Part shown: positions 24,600 through 44,356 of the stretch, piece by piece
Layout of the letters: each line of letters opens with the position of its first letter
Numbering within the stretch: position 1 is the first letter of the stretch
IMG/VR virus record: IMGVR_UViG_3300028454_001154
Source of the DNA: an uncultured virus (IMG/VR IMGVR_UViG_3300028454_001154)
Taxonomy: Duplodnaviria; Heunggongvirae; Uroviricota; Caudoviricetes
Strand: one strand, 5' to 3'
DNA: 64,000 nucleotides
Position numbers and translations under genes: made by a program
Notes under the pieces: model-generated
Databases searched by the model: none
What the model saw: only the letters and a program-made list of their open reading frames with translations
Told to the model about the DNA's origin: nothing

Positions 24600-25281
24600 T
24601 CGCGTGTTCAGCGGGCATCAGCCCAACTTCCTGCCATACATGGGTTTCTTCTATAAGATGTTCCGCTCGGATGTGTTTATCCTTGACGATGATGTTCAGT
24701 ATTCCTCGAAGGCATGGCACAACACAAACTTTATTAAGGCAGGTCAGGACAAGTACCGTCTCACGGTGCCTGTGAGTTATACATTCGGAGATCCCATCAA
24801 CAAAGTCGAGATCAGCTATGCAAAACCGTGGGATAAGAAACTGCTTTCCACGCTCAGGATGAGCTACGGGAAGGCGCCGTTCTTTGAAGAAGGCTTTTCC
24901 CTTATAGAAAGGCATATTTCCAAACACCCGCAAAAGCTGGTCGATCTGACGATACCTCTTATAAGGGAAGTCCATGATTTATTTGGCCTTGGATGTGAAA
25001 TCGTCCTATCTCACACGATGCCGACTGAATTGCGGAACAACGAGCGGAATATATGGCAATGCGAACAGCTCGGCTGCAACATCTATTATTCCGGCATAGG
25101 GGGCCGTGAGTATAATGATGCTGCTGCTTATGCAGCGCACGGCATTCGACTGGAGTATTCTGACTACGGCCCCACGCCTTACAGACAGGTTGGCAAGGGA
25201 GCTTTTATCGAGAACTTATCGGTTATAGACTATATTTTCAACAAGGGCTTTGTACTGCCGGAAGAGTGGGTGAGAGAATGA
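24592..25281 (+). CDS. WbqC-family protein
   Basis: HQPNFLPYMGFF.K...DVFI.DDVQY, Y.KAPFF, YYSG.GG..Y, NLSVIDYIFN. Start re-set to ATG 24592. Confidence 0.88.
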   Translation: MSDRVFSGHQPNFLPYMGFFYKMFRSDVFILDDDVQYSSKAWHNTNFIKAGQDKYRLTVPVSYTFGDPINKVEISYAKPWDKKLLSTLRMSYGKAPFFEEGFSLIERHISKHPQKLVDLTIPLIREVHDLFGLGCEIVLSHTMPTELRNNERNIWQCEQLGCNIYYSGIGGREYNDAAAYAAHGIRLEYSDYGPTPYRQVGKGAFIENLSVIDYIFNKGFVLPEEWVRE

Positions 25282-25994
25282 GCGGCCCAAGCGAATTGTT
25301 TAACATATATGTCCCCAGTTATAACAGGGCTGAGACGACAACGACTTTCAAGCTGCTGGAGTATTGCACCTACGTCGTCAGGCAATCCCAAGAAGCGGCG
25401 TACCGGGCGCGAGGGATAGAGAACATCTGGGCTGTCCCTGATCATGAGATCGATAACATCGTAAAGGTCTGCAACTATATCAACGATCATGCGCCTGAAA
25501 CCATCATCTGCGAAATAGATGATGATGTGGATTACTTCCTGTACCGGATGGAAAAGAACGAGAAACTGACTGATCCTGAAACCATAACCGCTGAACTTGA
25601 AAGAATCGGGCAGATAATGCTCGACCTCGATATTGGATTCGGAGCGGAAGATGCATCCATTGCACCATGGAACTACGATGCGGAGTTTGGCTTCAAGGGT
25701 ACGACGGGAGCTCTCCGGTGGTTCAATCAGAAGGTGTACAAGTCCCGGTTCCGCGAGGAAGTTTATCATAACTGCGACCTCGACGTCATGCTGCATGAAC
25801 TGTTGGTCAACCGTATAACCCTAAAGCCCAAGTACCTATGCGTTAAAGCAGGAACAGATACAAACGCCGGAGGAAACTCGTCTAAGACCAGACAGGCGCA
25901 GGAGGATTGTGCGCGTGAGATGAAAATACGTTGGGGGAAGTATTTCTCTTACAACTTCAAAACGAATAAGCCAACAATCAACGTCCAAAGGTGA
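25278..25994 (+). CDS. GT-A fold glycosyltransferase (TAGT/GREB1-like, possible DNA glycosyltransferase)
   Basis: IYVPSYNRA, YVVR..Q...Y, IDDD (DxD), D.D..L, NAGGNS, RWG. Confidence 0.7.
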   Translation: MSGPSELFNIYVPSYNRAETTTTFKLLEYCTYVVRQSQEAAYRARGIENIWAVPDHEIDNIVKVCNYINDHAPETIICEIDDDVDYFLYRMEKNEKLTDPETITAELERIGQIMLDLDIGFGAEDASIAPWNYDAEFGFKGTTGALRWFNQKVYKSRFREEVYHNCDLDVMLHELLVNRITLKPKYLCVKAGTDTNAGGNSSKTRQAQEDCAREMKIRWGKYFSYNFKTNKPTINVQR

Positions 25995-28068: not shown

Positions 28069-28101
28069 GATAATATCCCTCTTAAGGTGGTGGAAAGGCT
28101 C

Positions 28102-29499
28102 ATGGCAAGAGCCATAAAGCCACAGCCGGGGCCTCAGACGGATATGCTCATGAGTCCCGCTGACATTATCATCTTTGGAGGAGCTGCAGGAGGAGGGAAG
28201 ACCTTCAGTTTACTGCTGGCCCCACTCCGGTATAAGAACGTCCCCGGTTTTGGCTGTACGATATTCAGAAAGAACTTCAACCAGATATTTGCCCAAGGCG
28301 GCTTATGGGATGAGTCACTTAAGATATATCAGGGCATGAGAGGAGCAAGGCCGCGGTACTCTGTTGGAGCATGGCAATTCAGCGACTCCGAAGGAAGGCC
28401 GCTCTCTGCTGTTAAGTTTGCCCATATTGAGAAGGATGATGAAGTCCACAAGTGGCAGGGCTCTCAGATCTGCGAAATCGGATTTGACGAGCTGACACAC
28501 TTTAGCGAGAAGACTTTCTTCTATATGCTTTCTCGTAATCGTTCTACTTGTGGCATCAAGCCGCATGTTATAGCAACCTGCAACCCTGACGCAGATAGCT
28601 GGGTGGCAAAGTTCATTGAATGGTGGATCGATCAGGACACGGGATATCCCATCCCAGAGAGAAGCGGGAAGCTCCGTTTTTTCATAAGAAGAGACGAAAA
28701 GCTCTACTGGGCAAGTACGAGGCAGGAGCTTTGGAAGAAGTTTGACCTTACCACAGAAGAAGAGAAGGCAGAGCCGAAGTCTGTCACCTTCATTATGTCA
28801 CGTCTGGAAGACAACAAAGAACTGCTGCGTGTCAACCCTCAATACCTCGCCAACCTGAAGGCCATGTCTCAGGTTGAGCGTGAACGCTTATTGTACGGGA
28901 ACTGGAAGATCAAAGCTGCTGCGGGAATGTTTTTCAAACGTTCTCAGGTAGAGATGATCGATGTTGTTCCGAAGGACATTCAGATGACGTGCCGGGCATG
29001 GGATATCGCGGCTACCGAAGATAAGGAGAGCAATGGAGATCCCGACTATACGTCTGGTGTCTTAATGGGAATCCGTAAGGATCAGACTGTAGTAGTTATG
29101 GATGTCATCAACCAACGCATCAAAGCCGGAGAAGTAGAAAAGCTCATCTACAATACGGCGGTGTCCGATCGAGCGAAGTACGGCTTCAAGTACAGAATCC
29201 ATATACCGCAGGATCCCGGTGCTGCAGGCAAGATCGTTGCCCAGAATTATGCCAAAAAGTTGGCCGGATTCCCTGTCACTGTCACAGGAGTTTCCGGTAG
29301 CAAGGAACTCAGGGCCACCCCGTTCGCAGCCCACTGGCAGAACGGGAATGTGTATGTCCTTGCCGCAGATTGGAATGATGTGTACTTTGCACAGCTTGAA
29401 TCATTCCCGGAGTCCAAGCACGATGACATGGTCGACGCAAGCTCAGATTCGTTTACTGAGCTGACTACTTCCAAGTTCAATATCCGCAACCTGATATAA
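28102..29499 (+). CDS. terL: Terminase large subunit
   Basis: PQPGPQ, GGAAGGGKT, FDELTHF, ATCNP, RAWDIAAT, HDDMVDA nuclease motif. Confidence 0.95.
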   Translation: MARAIKPQPGPQTDMLMSPADIIIFGGAAGGGKTFSLLLAPLRYKNVPGFGCTIFRKNFNQIFAQGGLWDESLKIYQGMRGARPRYSVGAWQFSDSEGRPLSAVKFAHIEKDDEVHKWQGSQICEIGFDELTHFSEKTFFYMLSRNRSTCGIKPHVIATCNPDADSWVAKFIEWWIDQDTGYPIPERSGKLRFFIRRDEKLYWASTRQELWKKFDLTTEEEKAEPKSVTFIMSRLEDNKELLRVNPQYLANLKAMSQVERERLLYGNWKIKAAAGMFFKRSQVEMIDVVPKDIQMTCRAWDIAATEDKESNGDPDYTSGVLMGIRKDQTVVVMDVINQRIKAGEVEKLIYNTAVSDRAKYGFKYRIHIPQDPGAAGKIVAQNYAKKLAGFPVTVTGVSGSKELRATPFAAHWQNGNVYVLAADWNDVYFAQLESFPESKHDDMVDASSDSFTELTTSKFNIRNLI

Positions 29500-29512: not shown

Positions 29513-29587
29513 TGGGGTGTCGCCAAGCGGTGAAGGCATGGGACTTTGACTTCCATATCGCAGGTTCGATTCCTGCCACCCCAGCCA
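29513..29587 (+). tRNA. tRNA-Gln(UUG)
   Basis: Acceptor TGGGGTG/CACCCCA, anticodon loop CTTTGAC, T arm GCAGG-TTCGATT-CCTGC, encoded CCA. Confidence 0.92.
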
Positions 29588-29588
29588 T

Positions 29589-29663
29589 GCTCGGGTAGCT
29601 CAATGGTTAGAGCGGGCGCCTTTTAAGCGCTTGATGATAGTTCGATTCTGTCCCCGAGCACCA
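29589..29663 (+). tRNA. tRNA-Lys(UUU)
   Basis: Acceptor GCTCGGG/CCCGAGC, anticodon loop CTTTTAA, T loop TTCGATT, encoded CCA. Confidence 0.88.
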
Positions 29664-29740
29664 TTCATGGCTTGTAACCGACTTTATACTTGACACCCCG
29701 GTAGGGTGTGTTACGATAAAAGTATAAGGAGGTATTTACC

Positions 29741-30673
29741 ATGAAAACCAATTACAACAAAATCTTAACAAACCCCAACATCAAACATTACAACTACATC
29801 ATGGACTCCAGCAGGAGGTTTCACTACTACGGGGAGGAGGGTAACTTTACTTTGCTGGCGCCTCTTTTCCAATCCTTCAACACGGATTTATTGTGGACCC
29901 TTATCACCAGCTGGGCGGACCCCAATAATCAGGGAATCCTCAAGGAGGAGCTGGAGAAGGCGGAAAATGGGGAGATGATGGATCGGAATATTTTTGAGAC
30001 GGCGGATTACATCAACTATACTATTCTTCAAATCCAATACACCACCCCAACCATTTTAGTGGTGGATCAGGAAACTGGAGCCATCAACAAAAAAATTGAC
30101 CTCACTCCAAACAACTTGGAAAAAACTATCGAGGAAATCTTCCCGGAGATTTACTCTATCAATCAACCTCAATTCATCTTTTCTTTCCCCTATCCGGACC
30201 CTTCCCCATTTGATTCTTCCACTGAGGACCCTTCCCCGAGAGGGGAGGAGTCCTCTCAGGAGGAAGAAGATGATGAAAAAGATTACTTGGTATTCGGAGG
30301 CTTCTTCCCGGAATCCAAGAGAAACCCGGGTGTGACTTATACAAAAGGAGATGTCCGGGAACACCATCCACCTTTTCAGGGAGTCTGGTCGGACCATCAG
30401 TTGAACCCATTCAAAACAGGATGGATCATTGACATGGATACCCGGAAGGTGCTGGATATTTTCTACGGAATCTGTAATGACTTCAATGAATGGTTTCTCT
30501 CTTATGTTTGGCAGGGTAAGCGGTTTGAAGTTTACATCGATCGCCACAAAGAAAATGAGCCGCCTTTCAAAGCGGATTATGTTGGAGCATTTATCAATCA
30601 TGATTCCGTCTATTTCTATTGCGACAATGGTTGCTGGACTATCGAAGATACACCAAATAGAATAAGTGCTTAA
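29741..30673 (+). CDS. Hypothetical moron protein inside the tRNA cluster
   Basis: Own promoter (TTGACA 29690, TACGAT 29712), AAGGAGG RBS and terminator at 30672-30696. No family recognised. Confidence 0.7.
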   Translation: MKTNYNKILTNPNIKHYNYIMDSSRRFHYYGEEGNFTLLAPLFQSFNTDLLWTLITSWADPNNQGILKEELEKAENGEMMDRNIFETADYINYTILQIQYTTPTILVVDQETGAINKKIDLTPNNLEKTIEEIFPEIYSINQPQFIFSFPYPDPSPFDSSTEDPSPRGEESSQEEEDDEKDYLVFGGFFPESKRNPGVTYTKGDVREHHPPFQGVWSDHQLNPFKTGWIIDMDTRKVLDIFYGICNDFNEWFLSYVWQGKRFEVYIDRHKENEPPFKADYVGAFINHDSVYFYCDNGCWTIEDTPNRISA

Positions 30674-30696
30674 AGCCTGCTAATGCAGGCTTTTTT
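30672..30696 (+). terminator. Rho-independent terminator
   Basis: AAAGCCTGC-TAAT-GCAGGC-TTTTTT. Confidence 0.85.
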
Positions 30697-30700
30697 ATAT

Positions 30701-30756
30701 GCCGATTGCTTGGTGAGCGTGTGTAGACATCCGGGTTCGATTCCCGGTTTCGGCCA
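30701..30756 (+). ncRNA. Miniature tRNA-like element
   Basis: GCCGA/TCGGC acceptor-like stem and perfect T arm CCGGG-TTCGATT-CCCGG. D and anticodon arms are shrunken. Confidence 0.55.
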
Positions 30757-30802
30757 CTGCCCGAAGGCCAAGGGCTGACGCCTCGGAAAGACGAGGGCAT
30801 GC

Positions 30803-30878
30803 GCTGGTGTAGCTCAGTTGGCAGAGCAGCTGATTTGTAATCAGCAGGTCGTGGGTCCGAATCCCACCGTCAGCTCCA
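30803..30878 (+). tRNA. tRNA-Thr(UGU)
   Basis: GCTGA-TTTGTAA-TCAGC anticodon arm, canonical D arm, CCA. T loop is TCCGAAT. Confidence 0.9.
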
Positions 30879-30924
30879 ACAGTATTGACAATGTATGCTT
30901 TTACTGTAAAATGAGGATTAGCAA

Positions 30925-31683
30925 ATGAACTATTATCAATTGCTGCAGCGAGAAGTCAGAAAACGCCTCAGGCGTGATGCCGACATCCCTGATGATGAAA
31001 TCATCTTCAGAACAGCGGAAAACGGCAAGGTGTATGCCATCAATCAGGCCACCGGGGAAACGAGCGGCCTTGGGCCAGAGTTGGATAAATCCCAAAACGG
31101 GAATGGCAAAAGCGCAGGGCATGTTTCTGACGAAACGAGAAAGGCTGCGGAAGCTCATGGAATAGACATAGATGAAACCGTTCGGAGTCCAGAAAAAGAC
31201 TCCGACTGGACTTTTATCAATCCGAGAGTCGGAACAAGCGATGAGTTCGATAACAATTGTGCCCACTGCGCTGTTTGCTTTGAACTCCGAAGACGCGGGA
31301 TGGACGTTACGGCTGCCCCGATCGACGGGATGCACCAGCGAGAACTTGCGAAGAAGTTCAAAGGCTTCAAGTGGGAATCGCTTACAGCTAAGCGAAAAAA
31401 GTCCTCCAAGGCTGAACTGGACCAAGCCCTATCTAAACTCGGAGACGGCGCCAGAGGAATTGTCTATGTTTGGTGGGACGGTAAAAGTTGGGGACACTTT
31501 TTCAACTTTGAAGTAGTTGGAGGAACTGCACGCTACTTTGATGGGCAGGAAGATGCCAGAGATGTGGAAGCAGCATTTACTATGTGTCGTCCTTCTAAGA
31601 CTCAGTACGCGAGGACGGACAACCTTGAGTTGAATGAAGATACATTTTCTTGCGTGGAGAACAGAAAGAAGGGACGGTCATGA
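30925..31683 (+). CDS. Papain-fold toxin (Tox-PL / glutamine deamidase-like) with RRD-ENG leader module
   Basis: NNCAHC...ELRRRG.DV.A, GHFFN, YFDGQ give a Cys-His-Asp triad pattern. Confidence 0.75.
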   Translation: MNYYQLLQREVRKRLRRDADIPDDEIIFRTAENGKVYAINQATGETSGLGPELDKSQNGNGKSAGHVSDETRKAAEAHGIDIDETVRSPEKDSDWTFINPRVGTSDEFDNNCAHCAVCFELRRRGMDVTAAPIDGMHQRELAKKFKGFKWESLTAKRKKSSKAELDQALSKLGDGARGIVYVWWDGKSWGHFFNFEVVGGTARYFDGQEDARDVEAAFTMCRPSKTQYARTDNLELNEDTFSCVENRKKGRS

Positions 31684-31895
31684 TAAGCAAAGAAAAGGCT
31701 CTTGATATCGCGAAAAACAAGCGAACTGGCATCAAGCTCATCGATTCCTTTGAAGCGGGCCGTTGCTGGGCGTTTGTATTTGCTCCGGAAGATTGGGACG
31801 GAACAGATGGAATCGGAACTGCACCCACCTTCGTCGATAAAGAAACGGGCGATATTGTTCACATGAGCATGACCGAATACCTCAAATACCTTTAA
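31680..31895 (+). CDS. Small protein, candidate immunity for the papain-fold toxin
   Basis: 71 aa, ATGA-coupled. MIS.E.A..IA...W.F...FVDKETG pattern. Confidence 0.6.
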   Translation: MISKEKALDIAKNKRTGIKLIDSFEAGRCWAFVFAPEDWDGTDGIGTAPTFVDKETGDIVHMSMTEYLKYL

Positions 31896-31905
31896 GAAGA
31901 AAGCG

Positions 31906-31933
31906 ACGACCTTGTATAAGCAAGGTCGTTTTT
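31906..31933 (+). terminator. Rho-independent terminator
   Basis: ACGACCTTG-TATAAG-CAAGGTCGT-TTTT. Confidence 0.8.
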
Positions 31934-31937
31934 ATAT

Positions 31938-31984
31938 GCCGATGACATTGCTTATAGCAGGTTCACGTCCTGCCATCGGCACAA
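31938..31984 (+). ncRNA. tRNA minihelix-like element (acceptor and T arm only)
   Basis: Perfect 7-bp GCCGATG/CATCGGC, 12-nt connector, GCAGG-TTCACGT-CCTGC, ending ACAA. Confidence 0.55.
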
Positions 31985-32053
31985 AGGGGTTGCCCCCATG
32001 GTTTTGCCTGCCCACGAGGGATGAAACAGTTTGAAAATGTCTCGTGGCCTCCT

Positions 32054-32127
32054 GCGGGTGTAGTTTAACGGAAGAACATCAGACCTCCAATCTGATCGTC
32101 GGGGTTCGATTCCTCGTATCCGCTCCA
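32054..32127 (+). tRNA. tRNA-Gly(UCC), with C at position 33
   Basis: GCGGGTG/TATCCGC acceptor, TCAGA-CCTCCAA-TCTGA anticodon arm, T loop TTCGATT, TCCA end. Confidence 0.85.
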
Positions 32128-32503: not shown

Positions 32504-34840
32504 ATGGCCGATAAGAATGCTTCGCGGCTGAAACAGATCGACAGATACAATCACTTGATTGAGCGGGAAATGGGCGTCACAGTAGTTCGCCCTTTCAGAC
32601 AAGATGGATACATCAACCTCGTAAACCGCTATGGCACTTCGAAGGATATCAATGAACATTATCGGTTCATGCCAGAGCCGGATGTTCCGGATGAAGTGAT
32701 TTCGCGATTCTACGAAGGCAACGGTTTGTTCGCGAAGATCATCGATGCCCCCGCAGAAGAAGCCGTCAAGCATGGCTTTGAACTGGAGGATGTCACTGAC
32801 AGCAGACTCGTTACCTTCTACAGCGAAGCACTGGACGAGCTGGATTGGGAAGAAACTGCTATGACGGCTGTCAAGTGGGCCAGATTGTTCGGCGGCTCCA
32901 TTGCTGTCATGCTCATCAACGATGGCAGAGGACTGGAAGAACCGCTTGACTGGAGGAACATCAAGTCCATTGATGATATCCGGGTCTTCGACAGGTCGCT
33001 TATCAGTCCTGATTACCAAAGCCTGTACAACTACGAAGGCTTCGACCCGTTCCGGACAAGAGGCTCCCGCCTTGGTATGCCCGAGACCTTTCAGGTTTCC
33101 AGCATGTATGGAACCTTTGTAGTCCATGAAAGCCGCTGTCTTGTTTTCCAAAACGGCATTCTCCCTGAAAACACGGAAAGAAGCGAGTATCAGGTCTGGG
33201 GCGTTCCCGAGTATATCCGCATCCATCGGGCTGTCCGTGATGCCGAGATCGCTCACGGCAATGCACCAAAGTTGCTTGAACGATCCGTCCAGCCTGTCTA
33301 CAAAATGAAGGATCTGTCAGCGGAGCTTTCTACAGAGCAAGGCGAGAACTTCCTTCTTCGCAGGCTGCAGGCCATCGACGCGGCGCGTGGCTTAATGAAC
33401 AGCATAGTCGTGGATGCCGAGGGCGAGGATTACCATTTCGAGCAATTCAGCTTTAGCGGGATCAACGATGTATTGGCAGCTTCCTGCAACATGCTTTCCG
33501 CCGTAACGAATATTCCTCAGACCATCCTGTTCGGTCAGCCTGTCGGAGGTCTCAGCTCCACGGATGATACGGCGATGGAGAACTACTACAACTACGTCGA
33601 GCGCATTCAGAAACGAATGCTTCGAAGCAATCTTAGATATCTGCTGTCTGTCATTTTCCAAGCTGGTGTTCGCACTGGTGAGGTTGATGAAGTTCCCAAG
33701 ATCAAGGTTAAGTTCAATCCGCTGTGGTCGCTTTCTGATGCAGAGCAGGCGTCCCTTGAACAGCAGAAGGCTCAGGTCCAGCAGACCAAAGCTCAGACAG
33801 CTCAGATTTATGTTGGCATGCAAGCCATCGATCCTACCGAGGTTCGCAAGAAGCTGGCTGATTCTGAAGAGTTTGACGTTGAGAATATGCTCGACGAGTA
33901 CGACGATGAAGACCTGTTTGGCGAGGAGATCCCGGAAGAGCTGTCCTATCTTAGCGAGGAAGACCAGCAGAAGGCTCTCGAACTGTACGGCAGTTATGGC
34001 GGAGCCCATCCTCCTCAGCCGCAAGCGCAAGGAGAAGGCGGCGAACAACCGGGCATGGATCCTGCAGCAGGGATGATTCCTCAAATGCCAGGCGTTGCGG
34101 AAGCACCCAAAAACACCGATCCAGGCACAGAAGGCTCTGCATCTCCTGCGGCTCCAGCAGCTACGAAGCTCCCTCAGGATATGAGCCCGGAAGAACTCGC
34201 AAATCTTAATAAAGCCCCCAGAATGGGAGAAAGCGAGGAAAAGGATAAACTACCTTCCGAATCAGAAAACAAGGATTCTGAGGCTTTTTCTGCGATTTCC
34301 AATTCAGGCGAGGACAAAAAAACTATTGACATTGCTTCCGTTCATGATATCGTATCCTTAAAGGATTACATCCTCCAGTTTCAAAGCGACGAAACCATGC
34401 ATGCCGATTTCGGAAGAAAGGGCATGAAATGGGGCCAGCATATCTTTGGCAATGAATCCGAGACGAGCAAAGCCAATAGAAAAGACCTGATGGCAAAGCT
34501 CAATAACGGAACTTTGTCTTATAAGATGAGTGCGTCAAGGCAAAACCGCCACAGAAAGGGAACACCCGAAAATGCCAAGGCAGCCGCAGCGGGATCAATA
34601 AAGTCCGTCGTTACTATTGGCGATGCAGAACTGAAACGCATTGTCAACAATCACGAAGGTAGCTTGCGGGTAGTTAAAAAGAGTGACGGCAGCTATCGGG
34701 AGTTTTTCCGCGCCGAAAAGAATATCGGAATAGCTGTCGGCAAAAGCGGTAAAGGATCGCTCACGGTATATGGATGTATCTTCTACAGCCGATACGGCTG
34801 GCATGTAGTTCCTGTGTTGGAGGAAGAGATATATGGATAA
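32504..34840 (+). CDS. DUF1073-type portal protein fused to a C-terminal Ntox50-like RNase toxin domain
   Basis: Portal motifs KIIDAPAEEA, WARLFGGS, IPQTILFGQ, NYYNYV, FNPLW. After an acidic linker: QNRH..G...IG......T....IFYSRYGWHVVP. Confidence 0.85.
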   Translation: MADKNASRLKQIDRYNHLIEREMGVTVVRPFRQDGYINLVNRYGTSKDINEHYRFMPEPDVPDEVISRFYEGNGLFAKIIDAPAEEAVKHGFELEDVTDSRLVTFYSEALDELDWEETAMTAVKWARLFGGSIAVMLINDGRGLEEPLDWRNIKSIDDIRVFDRSLISPDYQSLYNYEGFDPFRTRGSRLGMPETFQVSSMYGTFVVHESRCLVFQNGILPENTERSEYQVWGVPEYIRIHRAVRDAEIAHGNAPKLLERSVQPVYKMKDLSAELSTEQGENFLLRRLQAIDAARGLMNSIVVDAEGEDYHFEQFSFSGINDVLAASCNMLSAVTNIPQTILFGQPVGGLSSTDDTAMENYYNYVERIQKRMLRSNLRYLLSVIFQAGVRTGEVDEVPKIKVKFNPLWSLSDAEQASLEQQKAQVQQTKAQTAQIYVGMQAIDPTEVRKKLADSEEFDVENMLDEYDDEDLFGEEIPEELSYLSEEDQQKALELYGSYGGAHPPQPQAQGEGGEQPGMDPAAGMIPQMPGVAEAPKNTDPGTEGSASPAAPAATKLPQDMSPEELANLNKAPRMGESEEKDKLPSESENKDSEAFSAISNSGEDKKTIDIASVHDIVSLKDYILQFQSDETMHADFGRKGMKWGQHIFGNESETSKANRKDLMAKLNNGTLSYKMSASRQNRHRKGTPENAKAAAAGSIKSVVTIGDAELKRIVNNHEGSLRVVKKSDGSYREFFRAEKNIGIAVGKSGKGSLTVYGCIFYSRYGWHVVPVLEEEIYG

Positions 34841-35084
34841 AAGCAAGGTTGATCTCATGAGAGAGAGTCTCGGAGAGATTGTCAGGTTGCGAGATACTGA
34901 AGGACATGTCGTTACTGGCAGATGTGTCATGTTCTCAACGGCTGAAGACAATGATCTTGATGATACGGGCAACGCTGAGGCATCGATAGCATTGTTTTGG
35001 AGAGAAAACGGCAATTTTAACGCAGATGACTTCGACGAAAGCCAAATCCTTTCTATCGAGATCTTGCCAGAAAAGAATCAGTAA
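34833..35084 (+). CDS. Candidate immunity protein for the portal-fused toxin
   Basis: 83 aa, acidic, overlaps the portal stop. G..V......G....G...EDND...ESQILSIEIL pattern. Confidence 0.65.
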   Translation: MDKSKVDLMRESLGEIVRLRDTEGHVVTGRCVMFSTAEDNDLDDTGNAEASIALFWRENGNFNADDFDESQILSIEILPEKNQ

Positions 35085-35189
35085 CCCTGATATAAAAGAC
35101 CCGAGAATCGGCCTATTTGATTTATTATCGTAATCAACGGAGTTGCTTAATGCAGCTCCGTTTTCTTATACCAAAAAGGCGGTGTTGTA

Positions 35190-38100
35190 TTGGATACTGA
35201 ATACTATAATGCTCTGCAGCGGCTTGAAATCCCTCAGGCCACGTTTGACAACATCATATCGGATGAAGGCACCCGGCAACAGATTGTCGAGTGCCTTTAT
35301 CATTGCTTCACTAACGTACCTTCCTTAAAGGAGGTTGCGTCTGTTCTGCTGCAATACACCGCCGCCCATGTCCATATGGATGATGACGACATCGATTGGA
35401 TCACTGTCGAGAACGGCGAGCATGTTCCGCTCAAAAACGGAACGGCGATTGGCGGGCCGCTCAAAGGGGCTGACTTCGGCTATGCCAAAAGCGAAACAGG
35501 CTTTTCTTCTAAAAGCAAAAAAGCAGAATCTGCCTTTACACCAAAACGGTCAGATTATGCATTCGAGCAGAAGGATCAATACGGTGTTGTCAAGGTGTCT
35601 GACTTCGACCCGTATGATCAGCGCGATGCTTGGGAGGAAATCAACCGAGACAAGCTGAAAGAGCTTGTAGATCAGGACAGAGAAGCATCCAAGAAGGAAG
35701 GCCGGGCGCGGACACCTATTACCGCTCTGATTGACCGGGAATGGTATGGTTCCAAAACCGAGAAAGTCACCCCAGACAGCTTCGAGCTGATGGATGACGT
35801 TAAGGCCGACAATGTTTTGGCCGAGAAGATGCCGAGGAACGTGTTCCTTGGCTGGTTCCGCGAGGCTGACAGCAATTACAAGCCGAGGGTCATCGATTCC
35901 ATCATCAGCACACCGGAGACGAGAACAGCAGCCCTCAGCATTATGTATGAGAATTATCGTCAGCTTGTCGACGATACTCTTTCATTCGAGGATTTTCTGA
36001 CGACTCCCGTCAAGATGTATCGTGGCGGTCATGGACAGAAGCACATGAAAGAGGACATCTTTTCCGCCTACTCTTTCAGCAAAAGCACCGCTCAAAAGTT
36101 CGCCGGGAACGATGGAAACGTCTATGAAGCTGAGATCCGGCCAATAGACACTTGGGGCAGTGTTACCACAAATAAGGAATCTGAGATCATGGTCCCGTCG
36201 TGGATCGCTCCGAATGGCAATGTTGATCATGCCGATTCTGCCTATGACGAATGGTTGGAAGACAACCTCGATCAGTTTGCCTCTGACGATGAGGAGAAAG
36301 ACTTTTCCAATTTCCGCATGAAAGATGGAGCCAAAGTCCGATCTGCCATCCGAAAAGAGGATGTCGCTGCTGCGTGGAAATCCTTCAAAGAGACAAGGCA
36401 AGACGCTGATGATGTAGACTGGATCACCGTGGAAAACGGGACACATGTTCCCATCGACAAAAGTGGCAAAGCTGTCGGCGGACCTCTTGAAGGAAAGGAT
36501 TTCAGCAAGGCGCAAAGCCAGAAGAAGGCATTCTCGTCTGTTTCCAAGTCTGACACCTCGAACTTTGGCAAGCCCGGAAAGTATCAGGTTTATCGCTCTG
36601 GCGGTATTTTCGATTCTCCGCTCGGCTATCTTTCCTTTGGCATTGACAGAAATCAATCTGAACCATATGAGAAGGAAAGAGGCAAGCCGATAGAAGCATA
36701 CGATGTTGAAATCAAAAAGCCGTACAGCATGACCGGATCCGATTTCAACGATATGCAGGATGAAATCTGCAAAAAGTATCTCGGCAAGTCTTACTACGAA
36801 GGCGAAAACCTTTCCGAAATGCGCCAAATCATGAGCGAGGCTGCTGAAAAGCTGGAGCAGGAAGGATACGATTCAATTCTTCTCGAACAGAGAAACGCGC
36901 TGTCTGGCGAAAGCAAATATGAAGTTCTTCTCCTGAATAAGTATAAAGACCGTGCGGTTTCCACTTCTGACAAGAGCAATTCTGGTGCTACCGACAACAG
37001 AAAACAGCTTACTCCCAAAGAAAGCGCAAAACAGACTGCTGACCTCAACAAACATCTCCATGAAGCAGTCGATGCCGAGACATCCATGGAGAAAAAGTTC
37101 AATGCCGCCAAGGAGGCTATAAAGAACGCCCCTGTTGGTCAGAGCGTGAAGGTCGGCTTTACTGAATACCGCAAGCTGTTCGACACGGACGACAACCAAG
37201 AGAAATGCTACGCAATCGGAAGCAACGACCATCCTTCGAGATCATTCGACGAAGTCATGCACTTGGTTGGTTATGATGGCTGGGGCGCAGAACCTGAGTT
37301 TGTCGATTTCGTTTCTCAAATGAAAGCAGCTCAGGATAAGGTCAATGAGCTCCGCGATTCTGGCAAGGTTTCTGGATCCGATGAAGTCAAAAAGGCCGAA
37401 GAAGGCTTGATCAATTCCCGCAGTTCCGATTACGGAAAACCCGGAGAATATGCCATATATCGCACTGGCGCTATTCCCCAAAAAGGAATGACGTTTTTTG
37501 CAGCCACCAAAGAGGGCGCGGATTCTTATGCCGGGCTGCATCCTGAAGGAACTACTGTCCAGTATAAAGTCAATCTTTCCAACCCGCTTGTTGTGACGGG
37601 ATCTGCTGACGGTGAATGTCTGAGAAAGGCGTATGAGACACTGCATCCGGGACAAAAGATGGAAGGTGAGCTCAACTCCAAGTCGTGGATGAAAGCTGAT
37701 AAGCAGAATGCAGCAGCCCTTGCCAGCAGCGAATACGACTCCATCATTTACATCGTCAATGGAAAGCCTACTGAGATTCAGATGCGGGCAAATGATGCTG
37801 ACAAAAAGGCGGAGAAGCTCGGCTCCTATACAACGACAGCGTGGTCCAGAAGCGGCAGAAATCTCGAACGTGCCATGTACGATGATATGTTCAAAAAGGA
37901 GCCTGACGATTATGTCAGAGTAGACGGTAGAGAAGATGGCGGCCCCGGATCCGGGAACTTCAATCACAAAGGAAGGCCCGGGGAGCAAGGCGGCTCAGCA
38001 CCCGGCAACGGCTCCAGAGAGGTTGCACACGGTAAGGACATTACCAAAAGCTATAATGGCCCTACCGACATCAAGTCTGTCATCCATGCTCAGGGCTTCG

Positions 38101-39401
38101 ATGGTTTGCCCAAGGTCGTTAAGAAAGCTGAGTTTGATGCTGCCGTCAAGAAAAGCAGTTTCATAGCCCAAAGAACATACTCCGCATCATCTCAGGAGAT
38201 TCTGGATGCATACCGAGATCAGCTGTACAACGGCGAATGGTATGTTGAATGCACTGTCGGTGGCGCCGGATATGGTCAGGGCATGTACTGTGCCGCTGAT
38301 TATGATGGGGAACTCAGCGATGGCATTAGAACTGAGATTCTCCATTACCAACAGCTTTACGACAGGACGGCAACTCATGAAGAAGCCATGGAAACGCTTA
38401 CGGGTTTGCTTCAGACATCCGTAGTTCGTAGGGCAAAGAATGATCTCAATGAGCGGTTCCACAAGTATGTTGATGGCTTTGATTTCCAAAGCGGCAAATG
38501 GAAAGAGGACTTTCGAGAAGAAGCAAAGGCGTTCAAAGACTCTGACCCCACTCTGTATGATAAGCTGTTGGGCTCCCTGCGACAGAAGGAAAGCTGGTAT
38601 GATGATCAGCTTCAGCAGGCGAAGTTTATGAGCGTCTCTGAGATCGCTGGAAAGTATCATATTCCCGTCGAAGTTGATGTTCCCTCATTTACGGAAACGC
38701 TTACGCTTGATCCAAGCGCGAAAATCATCACATATGATGATATCGATGGTATCTATAATGGGCGAATGGCAGAAAGCGAGACCAAGGCCATCCGCGACGG
38801 TGTACTCAAGAAGAGTGTTGAGAGTTTGGATGATAACGAGAAGACGTTTGTCAGGTACAATATTTTGTTCGGAACTGAAGATAGTGTGTCTTGGGATGAA
38901 GTGTACGAAGCGGCCAAGGATATGTCGAAAGAGAAACGGTCAGAGCTTGTCGCACTGTCTCGCAGCATCTATGAACAAGCGAGCAAGGAAATAGATAAAG
39001 CAAAAGATGAGCGTTATGAGACAGCCAGAAAGAACAGGGATAAATACCAAGACATTGGAGCGTTCGCAGCCGCTCTTGGATACGACGCCATCAATGCTGA
39101 GAATCATGGAGCTTCTGGGTCCTATACGGTTGTTCTAAACAGGACGAAAGTTCTGTTCCTTGATGAAAGTGAGCATATGGACAGCAAAGAGGATTCTGTT
39201 ATCACGTTCCAGCTCGGCAAGGATGGTGTTGTTTACGCTATTAAGGATCGAAAGGTTGTCGGCTGGGTCAAAGAGTATTTCTCCCAAAAGGAAGAGGCTG
39301 CCTCCGATCGCAAAGACAATCGCACCGATTCCAAGCGTGTTCTCAGCTATGAAGAGCTTCAGAATGCCTATACCAAGGCGAATAAAGCCGATATTGTATA
39401 G
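35190..39401 (+). CDS. 1403-aa polyvalent protein with four ADP-ribosyltransferase-like domains
   Basis: YRG..SAYSFS..ESE; two related YR.G..F....Y....P..YDSI..E domains; GFDGLP..YGQGMY..GYDAI..VLNR. Repeated linker modules lie between them. Confidence 0.7.
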   Translation: MDTEYYNALQRLEIPQATFDNIISDEGTRQQIVECLYHCFTNVPSLKEVASVLLQYTAAHVHMDDDDIDWITVENGEHVPLKNGTAIGGPLKGADFGYAKSETGFSSKSKKAESAFTPKRSDYAFEQKDQYGVVKVSDFDPYDQRDAWEEINRDKLKELVDQDREASKKEGRARTPITALIDREWYGSKTEKVTPDSFELMDDVKADNVLAEKMPRNVFLGWFREADSNYKPRVIDSIISTPETRTAALSIMYENYRQLVDDTLSFEDFLTTPVKMYRGGHGQKHMKEDIFSAYSFSKSTAQKFAGNDGNVYEAEIRPIDTWGSVTTNKESEIMVPSWIAPNGNVDHADSAYDEWLEDNLDQFASDDEEKDFSNFRMKDGAKVRSAIRKEDVAAAWKSFKETRQDADDVDWITVENGTHVPIDKSGKAVGGPLEGKDFSKAQSQKKAFSSVSKSDTSNFGKPGKYQVYRSGGIFDSPLGYLSFGIDRNQSEPYEKERGKPIEAYDVEIKKPYSMTGSDFNDMQDEICKKYLGKSYYEGENLSEMRQIMSEAAEKLEQEGYDSILLEQRNALSGESKYEVLLLNKYKDRAVSTSDKSNSGATDNRKQLTPKESAKQTADLNKHLHEAVDAETSMEKKFNAAKEAIKNAPVGQSVKVGFTEYRKLFDTDDNQEKCYAIGSNDHPSRSFDEVMHLVGYDGWGAEPEFVDFVSQMKAAQDKVNELRDSGKVSGSDEVKKAEEGLINSRSSDYGKPGEYAIYRTGAIPQKGMTFFAATKEGADSYAGLHPEGTTVQYKVNLSNPLVVTGSADGECLRKAYETLHPGQKMEGELNSKSWMKADKQNAAALASSEYDSIIYIVNGKPTEIQMRANDADKKAEKLGSYTTTAWSRSGRNLERAMYDDMFKKEPDDYVRVDGREDGGPGSGNFNHKGRPGEQGGSAPGNGSREVAHGKDITKSYNGPTDIKSVIHAQGFDGLPKVVKKAEFDAAVKKSSFIAQRTYSASSQEILDAYRDQLYNGEWYVECTVGGAGYGQGMYCAADYDGELSDGIRTEILHYQQLYDRTATHEEAMETLTGLLQTSVVRRAKNDLNERFHKYVDGFDFQSGKWKEDFREEAKAFKDSDPTLYDKLLGSLRQKESWYDDQLQQAKFMSVSEIAGKYHIPVEVDVPSFTETLTLDPSAKIITYDDIDGIYNGRMAESETKAIRDGVLKKSVESLDDNEKTFVRYNILFGTEDSVSWDEVYEAAKDMSKEKRSELVALSRSIYEQASKEIDKAKDERYETARKNRDKYQDIGAFAAALGYDAINAENHGASGSYTVVLNRTKVLFLDESEHMDSKEDSVITFQLGKDGVVYAIKDRKVVGWVKEYFSQKEEAASDRKDNRTDSKRVLSYEELQNAYTKANKADIV

Positions 39402-40581: not shown

Positions 40582-41514
40582 TTGGATAATCAACATCTTC
40601 ATGAGATGACAAAGGAGGCTGCCAAGGGCGCTTTCAAAGGAAAGAAAAGCCTCCCTTGCAAAACGGTCCCGAGATACCCTGCATCAGCCGAACGGGAGTT
40701 CCGCAGGGTTATGAACGCCTATATGAAAATCCTGAACAGCGAACTCAAGAAAGAGCTGCCGTCCATCATGAAAGCCTATAAGGCGGAACTCGGAAATGAT
40801 TCCCGGTTTGACAGCTTCAATGATTTGGAGAAGAAGATCAGAGAGTCGTTTCTGATTATCTCAAAGGCGCTGGAGCAGAAATACTTCCGTTTTGATTTGA
40901 AGCGGAAGTTAGACGCCATTGCCAAGAGGGCCAAAGAAATCACTGCTGATGAGTGGTATAGGACGGTAAAGCAAACGCTCGGAATCGACCTGATGAAGGA
41001 CTACTACAAAGGTTCGTTTTATGAGGAAGGCGTCAAGAACTGGGTAGGGCAGAATGTGCAGAATATTCACACACTGCCCAATCAGGTGCTTGATGATATC
41101 CGGGACACCATCATAGATGGATATCGGAAAGGCATCCACGTTAAAGACCTTCAGAAGGAAATCCAGCACAGGTACAACATATCGAAAGAAACGGCTCAGA
41201 CGATTGCGAGAGACCAGATGTCTACGCTTAATGCGCAGATAACTCAGGAACAGCACAGGTCGGCTGGCGTGACACGGTACAAATGGTCAACGTCAAGAGA
41301 CCAGCGCGTTCGCGATTGCCACAGGGAGCTTGATGGGAAAATCATTTCTTGGGACGATCCTCCCGAAATGTGGTACATGACAAAGTCCAGAGGCAAAGTA
41401 TACACAGGCAGGCGATGCCATCCCGGCGAAGATTATTGCTGCAGATGCGTCGCACTGCCTGTTTTTGATGAAGACACAATAATCCTCCCGATGAATGGGA
41501 CGGACAAGAGGTAA
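40582..41514 (+). CDS. MuF / SPP1 gp7-family minor head protein (short form, no toxin extension)
   Basis: IARDQ...LN, YKWSTSRDQRVRDCH..LDG, HPGEDYCCRCVA.P. Confidence 0.9.
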   Translation: MDNQHLHEMTKEAAKGAFKGKKSLPCKTVPRYPASAEREFRRVMNAYMKILNSELKKELPSIMKAYKAELGNDSRFDSFNDLEKKIRESFLIISKALEQKYFRFDLKRKLDAIAKRAKEITADEWYRTVKQTLGIDLMKDYYKGSFYEEGVKNWVGQNVQNIHTLPNQVLDDIRDTIIDGYRKGIHVKDLQKEIQHRYNISKETAQTIARDQMSTLNAQITQEQHRSAGVTRYKWSTSRDQRVRDCHRELDGKIISWDDPPEMWYMTKSRGKVYTGRRCHPGEDYCCRCVALPVFDEDTIILPMNGTDKR

Positions 41515-41980: not shown

Positions 41981-44356
41981 TTGTATAACGATTCCTTTCT
42001 GGATACGCTTGCCCATGCATACCGTGACGCAAGAGACAAAAATGAAAGCCTTGCCAAGTACCTGATAGGCGTATTCCATGAAATCGGTGTACTCCACAAC
42101 GATGGTGGTCCGGGCTCCGGGAATCATGGTCATAAGGGTGTACCGGGGCAGGTGGGTGGTTCCGCTCCGTCAGGCTCTGGAAGCGGCCCCAAATTCGTTG
42201 GCAGGTCTAAGAGAGACTTTTTCCCTGCCACATCATATATGGATAGCCCCGTTTTTCAGAAAGCGGTAAAGGCCGCGAAAGAAGCATTGCAAAAGCGTGA
42301 GCAATTGTCCAAACGAATAGAAGAGATCGATACTGAACTCAAGACGGAATCCAAGCCGAAGCCTCGAAAGTATTGGACGGATAAAGACATGATCGATGAT
42401 TTACTCGGTCGTCGGCCCAAGATTCTTACAGAAAGAGGCGAACAACTCCAAAAGGAACGGAAGAAAGTCTTCAATGAAAAGATGGACGCTGATCATCAGT
42501 TCACTGATGAAGGCGAAAAGCTAAATAAGCTAAAAAAAGAAGCCCATCGGCGTGAGATCGAAAGCTTTCACCCAGAACCTTTGGTCCCTGCGCAGAACGA
42601 TGATTACGAGGGCTTCACTCTTGAAGAAACAAGCAACAGCTACGGTGACGAATATCTGCACAATGGGCAAGGCGTTATTTGCGAGATGACTCCAAAGGAA
42701 TACCTTGAGCGATGTGCATATGAGATCTTTGACGACGCGACTATAGAGTCTTGTGTTTCGGCCATTGACGAAGAAATCGCTCGGGGATATGCCAAAAAAA
42801 TGCGCGATGGCACTAAGTTTCATCTTCCATACCTGAATTATAAACAGGGCGGGCAGGAAGGTCGCCACCGTGCTTATGCTGCTTACTTGTGCGGCATTGA
42901 CAAGATTCCTGTTCTTATAATCGGACGCTCAAGACGTCAAGACGGCGGGCCCGGTTCCGGCAATTTCGGCCATGAAGGTCGGCCCGGCGAAGTCGGCGGA
43001 AGCGCTCCTTCTGATGATGCCAGCGATACCCCTACAGCGACGAATCCTCAGGCTATTTCCAAACGCAGGGCCAACGAAACAATAGCCTCCATTCTTGGAA
43101 ATGGCGAATCCTCTGATGACCGAAGGGACAAGCTCAAGAAAATCGTCGATCAGTTGCATCCGGGCAGCAAAGTCCAGATGCCCGACACTTGGGATAATGA
43201 CGATGGAACCCATGTTGTCTATATCAAGGATGATGTCAACGGTGAAAGCCGCTGGTATCAAAAGTACGACGGGCAAAAAATGTACATGAGCGAAGACGAC
43301 CTTGTGTACTACATGCTCAGCGAGTACGACAATTTCAACGGGAATCTCTGCAAAGTGACATCCTCCGCTGAAAGCGAGGCAGAAAAGCGGGCGGCAGTTG
43401 AAGAATGGAACAAGAAATACAATTGGCGATATAATGCTTCGATCTGGCAGGACCATGGAGCGCTGACAGAACAAGCATCTATTCATATGCAGAAGTTCGA
43501 TCTGGATAACTGCGGTTATGGATTTGAACTTACAGGGTCGGACGGGAAGAAGTATATTAAAGACCAATACCTTGGATGGGTTGACAGCGACACATACAAG
43601 AAAGCAGACATGCGCAAGCTGAAGAATCCGACATTTGAAGGAGATTTCTTCGATATAAACCTCGGAATGAATGGTGTTTCTGCAGAATCTTGCGCGAAAG
43701 TACGAGAAGTATATGAAAATCTTCCCGAAAAGCTCAAGACGGCTTATGAAGACCGATTCAGAAATCAATCCTGTTTTGTCCAGAACCCGGAGTATGGCGT
43801 CAGCCATTGCGATGCTTACGGGAATGTTTCCCTGACACCTGATTCGTCCGCTCGAACCGTTTTCCATGAGTATGGGCACAGCATTGACTTCTACAGCGAG
43901 AAGATAAATGAGTTTCCATCTCAGCATCTGGACAGGTTGGGCAACAGCCCTCAGCAATATCGGCAGGATGTAGAGGCTATGGCAAAGGTTGTCGGGCTTT
44001 CCACTGACGGAAACGGAAACCTTACAGAATCGGAAGCCGATCGCACCCAAAAGTATTGGAGCTGGGCAAAGAATCAGGAAAAGAAAATCGCTGGGTTTGA
44101 AAATGTCTCCGATGCCATATCAGCTCTCACACACGCTTCGTGTGGAGAAGCGCTTTACGGAGGCCATGAGTCATCGTACTGGTATAAAGTATCTTCGCGT
44201 GGCGCCGCAAGCATGCGCTCCGCTGAGTTCTGGGCAGAATACTGCCAGATGAAAGCTTTTGGGCAAGAAGAAGCGCTTGACCTTATGAAGCAGATTGCGC
44301 CGAATCTTTACGATGCCTGCGAAAAGACTTATATGGAGGTCATTGAGAATGGCTAA
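41981..44356 (+). CDS. Polyvalent effector: shared leader, ParB/Srx-like domain, zincin metallopeptidase
   Basis: Two DGGPGSGN modules. QEGRHRAYAA, and FHEYGH...EFWAE. Confidence 0.7.
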   Translation: MYNDSFLDTLAHAYRDARDKNESLAKYLIGVFHEIGVLHNDGGPGSGNHGHKGVPGQVGGSAPSGSGSGPKFVGRSKRDFFPATSYMDSPVFQKAVKAAKEALQKREQLSKRIEEIDTELKTESKPKPRKYWTDKDMIDDLLGRRPKILTERGEQLQKERKKVFNEKMDADHQFTDEGEKLNKLKKEAHRREIESFHPEPLVPAQNDDYEGFTLEETSNSYGDEYLHNGQGVICEMTPKEYLERCAYEIFDDATIESCVSAIDEEIARGYAKKMRDGTKFHLPYLNYKQGGQEGRHRAYAAYLCGIDKIPVLIIGRSRRQDGGPGSGNFGHEGRPGEVGGSAPSDDASDTPTATNPQAISKRRANETIASILGNGESSDDRRDKLKKIVDQLHPGSKVQMPDTWDNDDGTHVVYIKDDVNGESRWYQKYDGQKMYMSEDDLVYYMLSEYDNFNGNLCKVTSSAESEAEKRAAVEEWNKKYNWRYNASIWQDHGALTEQASIHMQKFDLDNCGYGFELTGSDGKKYIKDQYLGWVDSDTYKKADMRKLKNPTFEGDFFDINLGMNGVSAESCAKVREVYENLPEKLKTAYEDRFRNQSCFVQNPEYGVSHCDAYGNVSLTPDSSARTVFHEYGHSIDFYSEKINEFPSQHLDRLGNSPQQYRQDVEAMAKVVGLSTDGNGNLTESEADRTQKYWSWAKNQEKKIAGFENVSDAISALTHASCGEALYGGHESSYWYKVSSRGAASMRSAEFWAEYCQMKAFGQEEALDLMKQIAPNLYDACEKTYMEVIENG

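Follow-up and report, generated by a model that had tools for sequence, protein, structure and literature searches.

Can the portal protein of a tailed phage act as the carrier of a toxin, and would the toxin carried at this locus still work? The question is raised by a 64,000-nucleotide stretch of DNA (IMG/VR record IMGVR_UViG_3300028454_001154, referred to below as the window), in which a 778-residue open reading frame (ORF) joins a portal domain, through a linker and a short junction tag, to a C-terminal module related to the RNase toxin family Ntox50, and is followed by an ORF of 83 residues. An earlier note made from the sequence of this DNA had described both ORFs, and both are present, with an overlap of 8 nt. 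Its description of an acidic linker, a basic terminal domain and an acidic small protein agrees with calculated isoelectric points (pI) of 4.24 (aa 477-635), 9.96 (aa 654-778) and 4.21 (the 83-aa protein). The interpretation favoured here, at slightly better than an even chance, is that the ORF encodes a cargo portal: the module would sit in the phage head, be held in check by the small protein, be released by cleavage and be delivered with the DNA, its activity being weak, altered or lost in the allele of the window.

A portal protein fused to an Ntox50 module

The N-terminal part of the 778-aa protein matches Phage_portal_3 (PF06381) in Pfam over aa 67-425 (E 8.7e-73) and the portal family phrog_15528 in PHROGs over aa 23-501 (E 9e-161). 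Searches with phmmer aligned it to the solved portals 9jlf, 9l01, Pam3 8hds and E217 8fvh, whose chains stop at about query residue 476. Single entries of four of the six matching solved sequences contain 12 chains, and 9jlf has 14 chains over two entries. A portal family is the best match of no other ORF scanned between 26 and 58 kb. Beyond the portal domain lies a linker (aa 477-635) in which P, G, A, S, E, D or Q make up 65% of the residues, and which holds a segment, A-T-K-L-P-x-D-M, that is conserved among relatives. In the form A-T-K-[LQ]-P-x-D-M, this segment was counted in 119 of 121 listed portal proteins, i.e., the 120 best homologues and the portal of Faecalibacterium phage FP_Brigit; it is absent from FP_Brigit and from one homologue, P0038.

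The proposal that the portal carries an Ntox50-like C-terminal domain was borne out by both sequence and structure comparison. Pfam matches the protein to Ntox50 (PF15542) over profile positions 3-92 of 92, with an E value of 9.9e-8 and a score of 33.1 bits, compared to a curated cut-off of 22.2. An alignment of 13 sequences, in which the module is only 22-33% identical to the 12 others, was used to model aa 654-778 with AlphaFold2; the model has a mean predicted local distance difference test score (pLDDT) of 91.1. When this model was compared to the PDB with Foldseek, the closest structure was YxiD-CT of Bacillus subtilis (9v8i_B; E 5.5e-6, template modelling scores 0.69/0.79, root-mean-square deviation 1.9 Å over 100 columns), followed by MafB2-CT of Neisseria meningitidis (8hhj_B; E 2.1e-3), with the next match at E 0.27. 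Comparison of the module sequence to PDB chains gave no match below E 0.08.

An error of assembly or gene-calling, with portal and toxin being separate genes in reality, could in principle create such a fusion, and the earlier note had named an assembly error as something that would overturn its proposal. This explanation is hardly credible given how often, and from how many sources, the architecture recurs. A second IMG/VR viral contig of 48,182 bp is identical to the window over 8,375 bases and has 1 mismatch in a second, overlapping 8,249-base stretch, and database records place the exact 778-aa protein on 2 contigs. Among 29 longer relatives of the module, 23 carry PF06381, and these 23 other clusters of portal-Ntox50 fusions come from many assemblies; two carry the MuF-type domain PF06152. 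In species-representative genomes, portal, NUDIX and Ntox50 domains lie in one frame at three loci (L013, L014 and L016), and a fourth (L015; positions 2894-4913 of an uncultured Clostridia metagenome-assembled genome) has Ntox50 fused to a portal of another family, PF04860 (Phage_portal), in a 585-aa frame. The fusion appears to have arisen more than once, because L015 joins Ntox50 to a different portal family, which suggests an independent origin. Scans of viral contigs with the window module, the small ORF, an alignment and two other module types returned only the near-identical contig, chance fragments or nothing.

Replacement of a catalytic histidine

The two solved homologues indicate which residues an active module should have. 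YxiD-CT cleaves tRNAs using an active site of His447, His521, His528, Lys446 and Lys524, and alanine substitution of its conserved His and Lys residues restores growth (PMC12700104), while in MafB2-CT the substitutions H335A, H402A and H409A each abolish toxicity (PMC9970974). Based on the His-x6-His-x-Val-Pro spacing, Lys446-His447 of YxiD corresponds to Arg682-His683 in the window, Lys524 to Arg763, and His528-x-Val-Pro to His767-Val-Val-Pro. His683 (module position 30; MafB2 His335) is invariant in the 13-sequence alignment, and the H-x-V-P motif (YxiD His528-Pro531) is retained as His767-Val-Val-Pro770. The second catalytic histidine, seven residues before that of H-x-V-P, is not kept: the position of YxiD His521 and MafB2 His402 is occupied by Phe760.

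The earlier note had given histidine as the usual residue at this position and had seen the phenylalanine, and the codon and the relatives show that it was right on both counts. It had suggested that activity may be altered; the change is more than a small variation, since the active site has three histidines and the residue replaced is one of these. At the Phe760 position, His is present in all 12 other sequences of the alignment, in 30 of 30 further relatives and in L049, the locus with the nearest relative of the module (60% identity over 80 residues). His is likewise found in 12 of 12 relatives gathered without bias towards this residue, namely eight Ntox50 portals found through the portal part, three phage proteins found by tblastn with the window module, and L049, found through the small gene. 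A larger tally of L013-L048, with His in 39 of 41 loci, is biased, because one scan pattern contained T-I-H-Y; within it, L036 is spurious and L038 lacks the final Pro. The L049 codon is CAT and that of the window TTC, so that all three bases differ, and around this position three of five residues are not those of L049. Given that Phe760 replaces a histidine needed for toxicity in the solved homologues, the RNase activity of the window allele is doubtful, and is probably weak, altered or lost. The module thus belongs to the Ntox50 family by homology but is a catalytically incomplete member.

The comparison with L049 bears on whether the module is maintained. The toxin segment and the small protein are 60% and 46% identical to those of L049 at the amino acid level, with nonsynonymous divergence (dN) of 0.37 and 0.53, respectively; synonymous sites are saturated, hence no dN/dS ratio can be given. 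This pattern points to purifying selection on both genes since the split from L049. The signal averages over both lineages and is silent on the time since the change from His to Phe.

It is unlikely, although there are arguments in its favor, that the module is a fully active injected toxin, in which nearby lineage-specific residues, such as Arg763 and Tyr764, fill the role of the lost histidine, the module is cut free, and the 83-aa protein provides true immunity. His683 and His767-x-Val-Pro are kept, the ORF and its partner are intact, and long-term purifying selection relative to L049 is apparent for both genes. Moreover, CdiA-CT of Yersinia kristensenii, which has a related fold, carries Thr/Tyr where RNase A has His, indicating that a solution without histidine exists (PMC9970974), and the three changes within five residues could represent remodelling rather than decay. 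Interpretation in these terms is made difficult by the presence of His in all 12 relatives of the unbiased set and by the mutational data, since alanine at this position abolishes MafB2 toxicity and a like effect is stated for substitution of the conserved His and Lys residues of YxiD. In addition, the selection signal, being averaged over both lineages, says nothing about the period since the histidine was lost.

The overlapping 83-residue gene

The start of the 83-aa ORF overlaps the portal stop codon by 8 nt (ATGGATAA), and a GGAGG sequence lies 8 nt before its ATG. The protein matches phrog_1865, a 64-position family of unassigned function, with an E value of 9.4e-5. An exhaustive search with the 83-aa protein gave 13 matches at E <= 0.001, its own record included, of which only P0124 and P0128 (46% and 52% identity; phrog_1865 E 5e-7 and 4.7e-8) were accepted as relatives. 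Ten long matches made up of multiple stretches were dropped, as they look like repetitive acidic proteins. A word-index search with the protein found its own cluster alone, Pfam searches with five members of the small family and nine downstream ORFs found no credible family, and the ESM Atlas search with the 83-aa protein found only unnamed clusters of small proteins.

The earlier note had called this gene immunity-like, and the association of its family with Ntox50 is indeed tight. A phrog_1865-family ORF directly follows the Ntox50 module in 11 of 11 phage-type loci examined, with a start codon between -79 and +15 nt of the toxin stop. These loci are the window, the portal carriers L008, L009 and L013-L016, the MuF-type carriers L010-L012, and L049, where the carrier is cut off. 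In L008 and L009, the toxin is about 30% identical to that of the window and is followed, 7 nt after its stop, by a 70-aa ORF that matches the PHROG in L008 (E 2.3e-6). The ORFs of L013, L016 and L014 match a profile built here (E 8e-27 to 1e-16 in a file of 62 sequences), and that of L015 matches it more weakly (E 3.5e-4); the L009 ORF was inside this profile and so matches by construction. The MuF-type loci are from the cultured phages Javan645 (L010), pSp_SNUABM-S (L011) and phiC2 (L012), with PHROG E values of 2.3e-9, 1.4e-12 and 1.1e-31, respectively. In L049, the small ORF is P0124 itself and overlaps the end of the toxin (PHROG E 5e-7).

YxxD, the proven immunity protein of YxiD, offers a structural precedent for the 83-aa protein. 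It is Sm-like, has YaeO, Hfq and LSm as structural neighbours, and blocks the active site of YxiD with an acidic beta2-beta3 loop (PMC12700104). The 83-aa protein was modelled (pLDDT 84.2) as a helix at aa 5-11 followed by five strands, with a low-confidence loop at aa 37-49; between strands 2 and 3, aa 36-50 include six Asp/Glu and zero Lys/Arg. The nearest solved folds are YaeO, Hfq, LSm and the C-domain of RimP (Z 7.5-8.3), the best being YaeO (6jie_A; Z 8.3, root-mean-square deviation 3.5, 67 aligned residues), and a profile of the small family compared to PDB sequences scored Sm/LSm proteins best (E 0.026 and 0.048). YxxD itself (9v8i_A) is absent from the best 50 matches of the structure searches with the 83-aa model, which shows neither a fold match nor a difference. 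Profile-profile comparison of the small family with YxxD-type ORFs using hhalign gave a marginal similarity (probability 30%, E 5.5e-4) over 37 columns covering the helix, strands 1-2 and the start of the loop; a third, unrelated Ntox50-adjacent family used as a control gave E 0.69. These models predict that the 83-aa protein is most likely a compact YxxD-like inhibitor, related to YxxD by homology or by analogy.

Two observations concern the surroundings and the wider family of such partners. A terminator-like hairpin between the 83-aa ORF and the gene for a 1403-aa protein is a possible boundary of the cassette; the region has three terminator-like sites, compared to a mean of 2.0 in shuffled sequences, which is not above chance. 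Separately, 15 loci from Chlamydiae, a cyanobacterium, Flavobacteriaceae and others (L025, L028-L032, L034, L037, L039-L041 and L043-L046) have Ntox50 followed by the third family, of 100-130 aa, with the pattern R-A-L-L-G...L-R-A-V...F-Y-Y-D...S-D-F-P and no Pfam match in L028 and L031. This is probably another unnamed Ntox50 immunity family, although the grouping of its 15 loci, and of the weak members L038 and L042 (E 0.013 and 0.021), was done partly by eye.

Portals as carriers of exchangeable cargo

The suggestion that related portals might carry different C-termini was examined in the 120 best portal homologues, which are 645-1,307 aa long and 58-73% identical to the window protein (its own record, 100%); domains were tallied from the listed matches. 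The linker is followed by a NUDIX domain in 116 of the 120, the window protein being one of the four without it. ADPrib_exo_Tox is present in 52 (many of them near-identical 1,120-aa proteins), Ntox50 in nine and Gln_amidase in three, with 53 having NUDIX and no other named domain, and three the portal domain alone. The portal of FP_Brigit, the closest cultured phage (L001, 11980-14638; 55% identity over residues 6-493), is an 828-aa protein annotated "portal protein" with NUDIX at aa 526-627 and then an unassigned C-terminal domain; the next gene, which overlaps it, encodes a 62-aa Cys_rich_CPCC protein (phrog_6332). Thus, the C-termini do differ, being Ntox50, ADPrib_exo_Tox, Gln_amidase or unassigned.

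Three conserved short tags separate the modules: G-G-P-G-S-G-N-x-G-H-x-G-x-P-G-x-x-G-G-S, W-[IV]-T-x-x-N-G-x-H and G-x-x-G-M-K-W-G. The tag found before Ntox50 differs between relatives, with G-M-K-W-G being used in the window and in P0152. Tags of the G-M-K-W-G type precede the last module in P0007, P0008, P0020 and P0152, and the window has one further copy, in a 230-aa ADP-ribosyltransferase, where Pfam recognizes it as DUF7211 (E 5e-7). A literature search on DUF7211 found no paper, and searches on GMKWG and GPGSGN found unrelated papers only. Judged by these comparisons, the window portal appears to be one allele of a polymorphic cargo portal, in which a junction motif links a constant carrier to a variable toxin.

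Similar elements are found on proteins of the window that are separate from the portal. A 791-aa protein and two ADP-ribosyltransferases, all free-standing, share a 38-aa N-terminal leader with 17 invariant alignment columns (window 41981-42100, 44603-44720 and 46330-46560). A tag (G-G-P-G-S-G-N or G-M-K-W-G) comes directly after the leader or, in the 230-aa protein, about a dozen residues further on. The shared leader looks like a handle for loading into the capsid. The 1403-aa protein has three internal tags, two of the form D-x-D-W-I-T-V-E-N-G-x-H-V-P (nt 35397 and 36420) and one G-G-P-G-S-G-N near aa 905. It also matches ART-PolyVal weakly (E 1.8e-4, below the cut-off) and in its appearance resembles a phage "polyvalent protein".

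The interval from the terminase gene to the portal gene contains a second toxin-like pair (window 30925-31895), made up of a 252-aa protein with a Gln_amidase domain (papain-fold glutamine deamidase; E 1.4e-11) and an 81-aa ORF that shares 34 nt with it and matches no family. In the relatives P0026, P0032 and P0067, the Gln_amidase domain is part of the portal protein, and residues 28-52 of the 252-aa protein resemble the tag before the Ntox50 module of P0013.

The comparison of relatives also bears on whether the cassette is simply decaying, i.e., an inactivated relic that is kept because it is fused to an essential portal, with the 83-aa gene as a leftover. Phe760 at a catalytic position and the low identity to the 12 other aligned modules (22-33%) would fit decay, and the lack of a NUDIX domain found in 116 of the best 120 relatives suggests deletions in this lineage. 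A relic is nevertheless very unlikely given that the 778 and 83 codons contain no stops or frameshifts, that the module model is confident (pLDDT 91) with the other invariant positions of the family kept, and that the small ORF still has a ribosome-binding site and an acidic loop and is still coupled to the portal stop.

A model for portal-borne delivery

The C-terminal crown of solved portals faces the capsid lumen. For this reason, if the constant Phage_portal_3 part forms the usual 12-mer, the linker and module would hang inside the head, in up to 12 copies per head and next to the DNA exit channel. The 83-aa gene would be translated together with the portal, and the acidic loop of its small Sm-like product would plug the basic face with which the module binds RNA, much as YxxD acts on YxiD; such masking would keep the producing cell safe while portals accumulate. 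Cutting would be needed for delivery because the portal itself stays in the particle, and the head protease encoded in the window would most likely cut the module from the portal at or near the tag. Candidate cut sites are the tags themselves or an [IL]-D-[KFI]-S element found 15-25 residues upstream of some tags. The cut module would enter the next cell with the DNA and, if active, would there attack tRNA or other RNA. We infer all of these points: where the module sits in the head, its copy number, its inhibition, its cleavage and ejection, and its target.

Delivered cargo is the most economical interpretation for three reasons: the tags also head other likely cargo proteins of the same phage; portals of relatives carry ADP-ribosyltransferases, deamidases and NUDIX domains; and the toxin-partner pair is also found with MuF-type proteins, in three cultured phages. 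The same observations bear on a different role for the module, in which it is tethered and never cut, and binds nucleic acid during packaging, plugs the channel or acts only in the producer, with the small protein as a chaperone or assembly partner. A very basic module (pI 9.96) would sit beside packaged DNA, the loss of a catalytic histidine fits a role limited to binding, and Sm-like proteins are often nucleic-acid binders or chaperones. Yet the ADP-ribosyltransferases, glutamine deamidases and NUDIX domains on related portals fit delivered enzymes rather than components of packaging, free-standing enzyme proteins headed by the same tags are encoded in the region from portal to capsid, and Ntox50 and phrog_1865 occur as a pair on the MuF-type proteins. 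We therefore regard a permanently tethered module as quite unlikely.

Several points weigh against the cargo-portal model favoured here. Portals are not, to our knowledge, known to leave the capsid, and an uncleaved module could not reach a target cell; instead of marking a cut site, the tag could be a joint for recombination or an element of folding. Phe760 replaces a histidine that is needed for toxicity in MafB2 (H402A) and, according to the general statement on His and Lys residues, in YxiD (His521). Hence, the module may be inert, which would weaken the case for a working toxin and immunity pair in the window copy, and "RNase toxin" as a label may overstate what this copy can do. For the small protein, the match to phrog_1865 is modest (E 9.4e-5), BLASTP between the window ORF and that of L008 gave no alignment, and profile-profile similarity to the L008/L009 ORFs is moderate (hhalign, probability 73%). 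Its similarity to the YxxD type is weak at the sequence level (probability 30%, E 5.5e-4), and Z scores of 7.5-8.3 fall in a range that the structure-search tool counts as common. Lastly, the 83-aa gene sits in a late operon, and protection of lysogens by it has no support, because the sole promoter-like site upstream (34326-34353, just upstream of the module coding region; 10 of 12 matches, with TG) is not above what is found in shuffled sequences.

A broader version of the cargo-portal model is possible, although doubtful. Portals of Brigitvirus-like gut phages would be a particle-borne polymorphic toxin platform, the head counterpart of contact-dependent inhibition (CDI) and Rhs systems, in which cassettes are swapped at the three tags, serving as both joints and protease sites. 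About 12 effector chains (NUDIX plus a variable toxin) would be fired per virion, and tags together with the 38-aa leader would load free-standing cargo. The module of the window would be disarmed and have a non-catalytic role.

Comparison with known systems

Head-assembly proteins with C-terminal enzymatic domains have been described before. BECR RNases (PBECR), 2H and InPase domains were reported as fusions to MuF and portal domains, with packaging and injection inferred (Iyer 2017, PMC5512222), and Nudix and ADP-ribosyltransferase (ART) fusions to portals have also been reported (Iyer 2022, PMC9503650). The generalization in the earlier note that toxins of phage heads are typically carried on MuF is thus too narrow, with portal fusions already in print. 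The portal protein of the window has the same overall organization, and the published picture fits its neighbours, i.e., the 1403-aa protein, MuF, HD and the two ART proteins. It differs in that its module is Ntox50, a classical polymorphic-toxin RNase, rather than PBECR, and in having a dedicated small partner gene. Ntox50 on portals and the small partner have no mention in the passages of PMC5512222 and PMC9503650 that were covered.

MuF proteins are established carriers of Ntox50. Zhang et al. (2012) placed MuF among the Ntox50 carriers and reported Ntox50 in the Clostridioides phage phiC2, with no immunity family listed for Ntox50 in the part of the paper covered; Jamet et al. (2017; PMC5576092) described MuF toxins of temperate phages, Ntox50 included, and small downstream ORFs. 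In contrast to such MuF toxins (e.g., the MuF-Ntox50 of phiC2), the MuF gene of the window is separate and has no toxin.

The YxiD-YxxD pair of B. subtilis 6633 (LXG type, type VII secretion system; PDB 9V8I) is the closest known relative by structure, sharing the conserved Lys/Arg-His, His-x-x-Lys and His-x-Val-Pro positions with the window module, and the Sm-like shape and acidic loop of YxxD are also predicted for the 83-aa protein. The differences are that YxiD is delivered by type VII secretion rather than by a phage head, that it has His521 where the window has Phe, and that YxxD-type proteins are longer (101-120 aa in loci L017-L027), with marginal sequence similarity to the 83-aa family. 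ORFs of the YxxD type follow LXG-Ntox50 toxins in the Bacillus loci L017-L022 and a few others. MafB2-CT with MafI2 of N. meningitidis (PDB 8HHJ; PMC9970974) is the second-best structural match and has three histidines with the same spacing; unlike the window protein, it is a secreted Maf toxin, and its His402 has no equivalent in the window. The MafB2 immunity protein differs from YxxD in architecture (PMC12700104).

Phage T4 provides a parallel for loading and release. Its internal proteins IPI-III and Alt have capsid-targeting sequences that are removed by the gp21 prohead protease, and they are ejected with the DNA. The short handle for prohead loading is comparable to the leader and tag on the free-standing proteins of the window. 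For the fusion studied here, by contrast, the portal itself serves as the handle, and the motifs bear no relation to those of T4. Relative to this body of work, the additions made here are modest: Ntox50 on portals of two families, phrog_1865 as a likely Sm-like partner, and an allele that lacks a catalytic histidine.

Genomic context

The phage in the window is a temperate, Brigitvirus-like myophage, present as a prophage beside queA of a gut-type bacterium (Table 1). The temperate lifestyle is indicated by the serine recombinase and CI-like repressor genes that adjoin queA. Sheath, tape measure and baseplate genes are also present, completing a myophage head and tail module.

Table 1. Positions of the portal-Ntox50 locus and of other genes and sites in the window
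Feature	Position (nt)	Strand	Remarks
queA, bacterial	1-1029		window start
Large serine recombinase	1283-3022	minus	
CI-like repressor	3064-3441	minus	
Large terminase	28087-29499		
Portal-Ntox50 ORF	32504-34840	plus	778 aa
Portal domain proper	32504-33931	plus	aa 1-476; Pfam Phage_portal_3, phrog_15528, phmmer to solved portals
Acidic Pro/Gly/Ala-rich linker	33932-34399	plus	aa 477-632, 156 residues
Junction tag	34400-34441	plus	aa 633-646, H-A-D-F-G-R-K-G-M-K-W-G-Q-H; just before toxin module
Ntox50-family BECR/RNase A-like module	34463-34840	plus	aa 654-778; Pfam match aa 677-770, AlphaFold2 model, Foldseek
Codon TTC, Phe760	34781-34783	plus	position of YxiD His521 / MafB2 His402
Small acidic ORF	34833-35084	plus	83 aa
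Terminator-like hairpin	35136-35162	plus	11-pair stem and T-run; between 83-aa ORF and 1403-aa gene
Multi-module protein	35190-39401		1403 aa
MuF	40582-41514		separate gene, without toxin
791-aa protein	41981-44356		function unassigned
ADP-ribosyltransferase	44603-45763		386 aa
ADP-ribosyltransferase	46330-47022		230 aa
Head protease/scaffold	48059-49630		
Cement protein, then major capsid protein	50156-51193 (major capsid)		

Four tRNA genes (Gln-UUG, Lys-UUU, Thr-UGU and Gly-UCC) lie among toxin genes just upstream of the portal, at window positions 29513-32127. Because the characterised Ntox50 toxin YxiD is a tRNase, the presence of phage tRNAs beside an Ntox50 module is perhaps no coincidence. 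The prophage also has a ThyX-type thymidylate synthase and a sugar/DNA-modification-like cluster (window 10013-10675 and 22582-25994), the latter with a hexapeptide transferase that has a PglD N-domain, a PIG-L deacetylase, WbqC and a weak match to a TET-associated glycosyltransferase. Together, these genes may represent a DNA hypermodification pathway.

Implications

For the window copy, the missing histidine argues against annotation as an active toxin. The association described here allows members of phrog_1865 to be interpreted as partners of the Ntox50 modules that phages carry, probably acting as compact YxxD-like inhibitors. If modules are loaded and released as proposed, a portal fusion would provide about ten times more effector per particle than a MuF fusion. 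Portal relatives are very common in gut metagenomes: of 7,999 candidates scored, 6,292 proteins reached E <= 1e-20, and cargo is present on nearly all of the 120 best. For these reasons, cargo portals may be a principal means of enzyme delivery into Bacillota by temperate gut phages. FP_Brigit, grown in culture on Faecalibacterium, is a tractable system in which to address the question of portal cargo.

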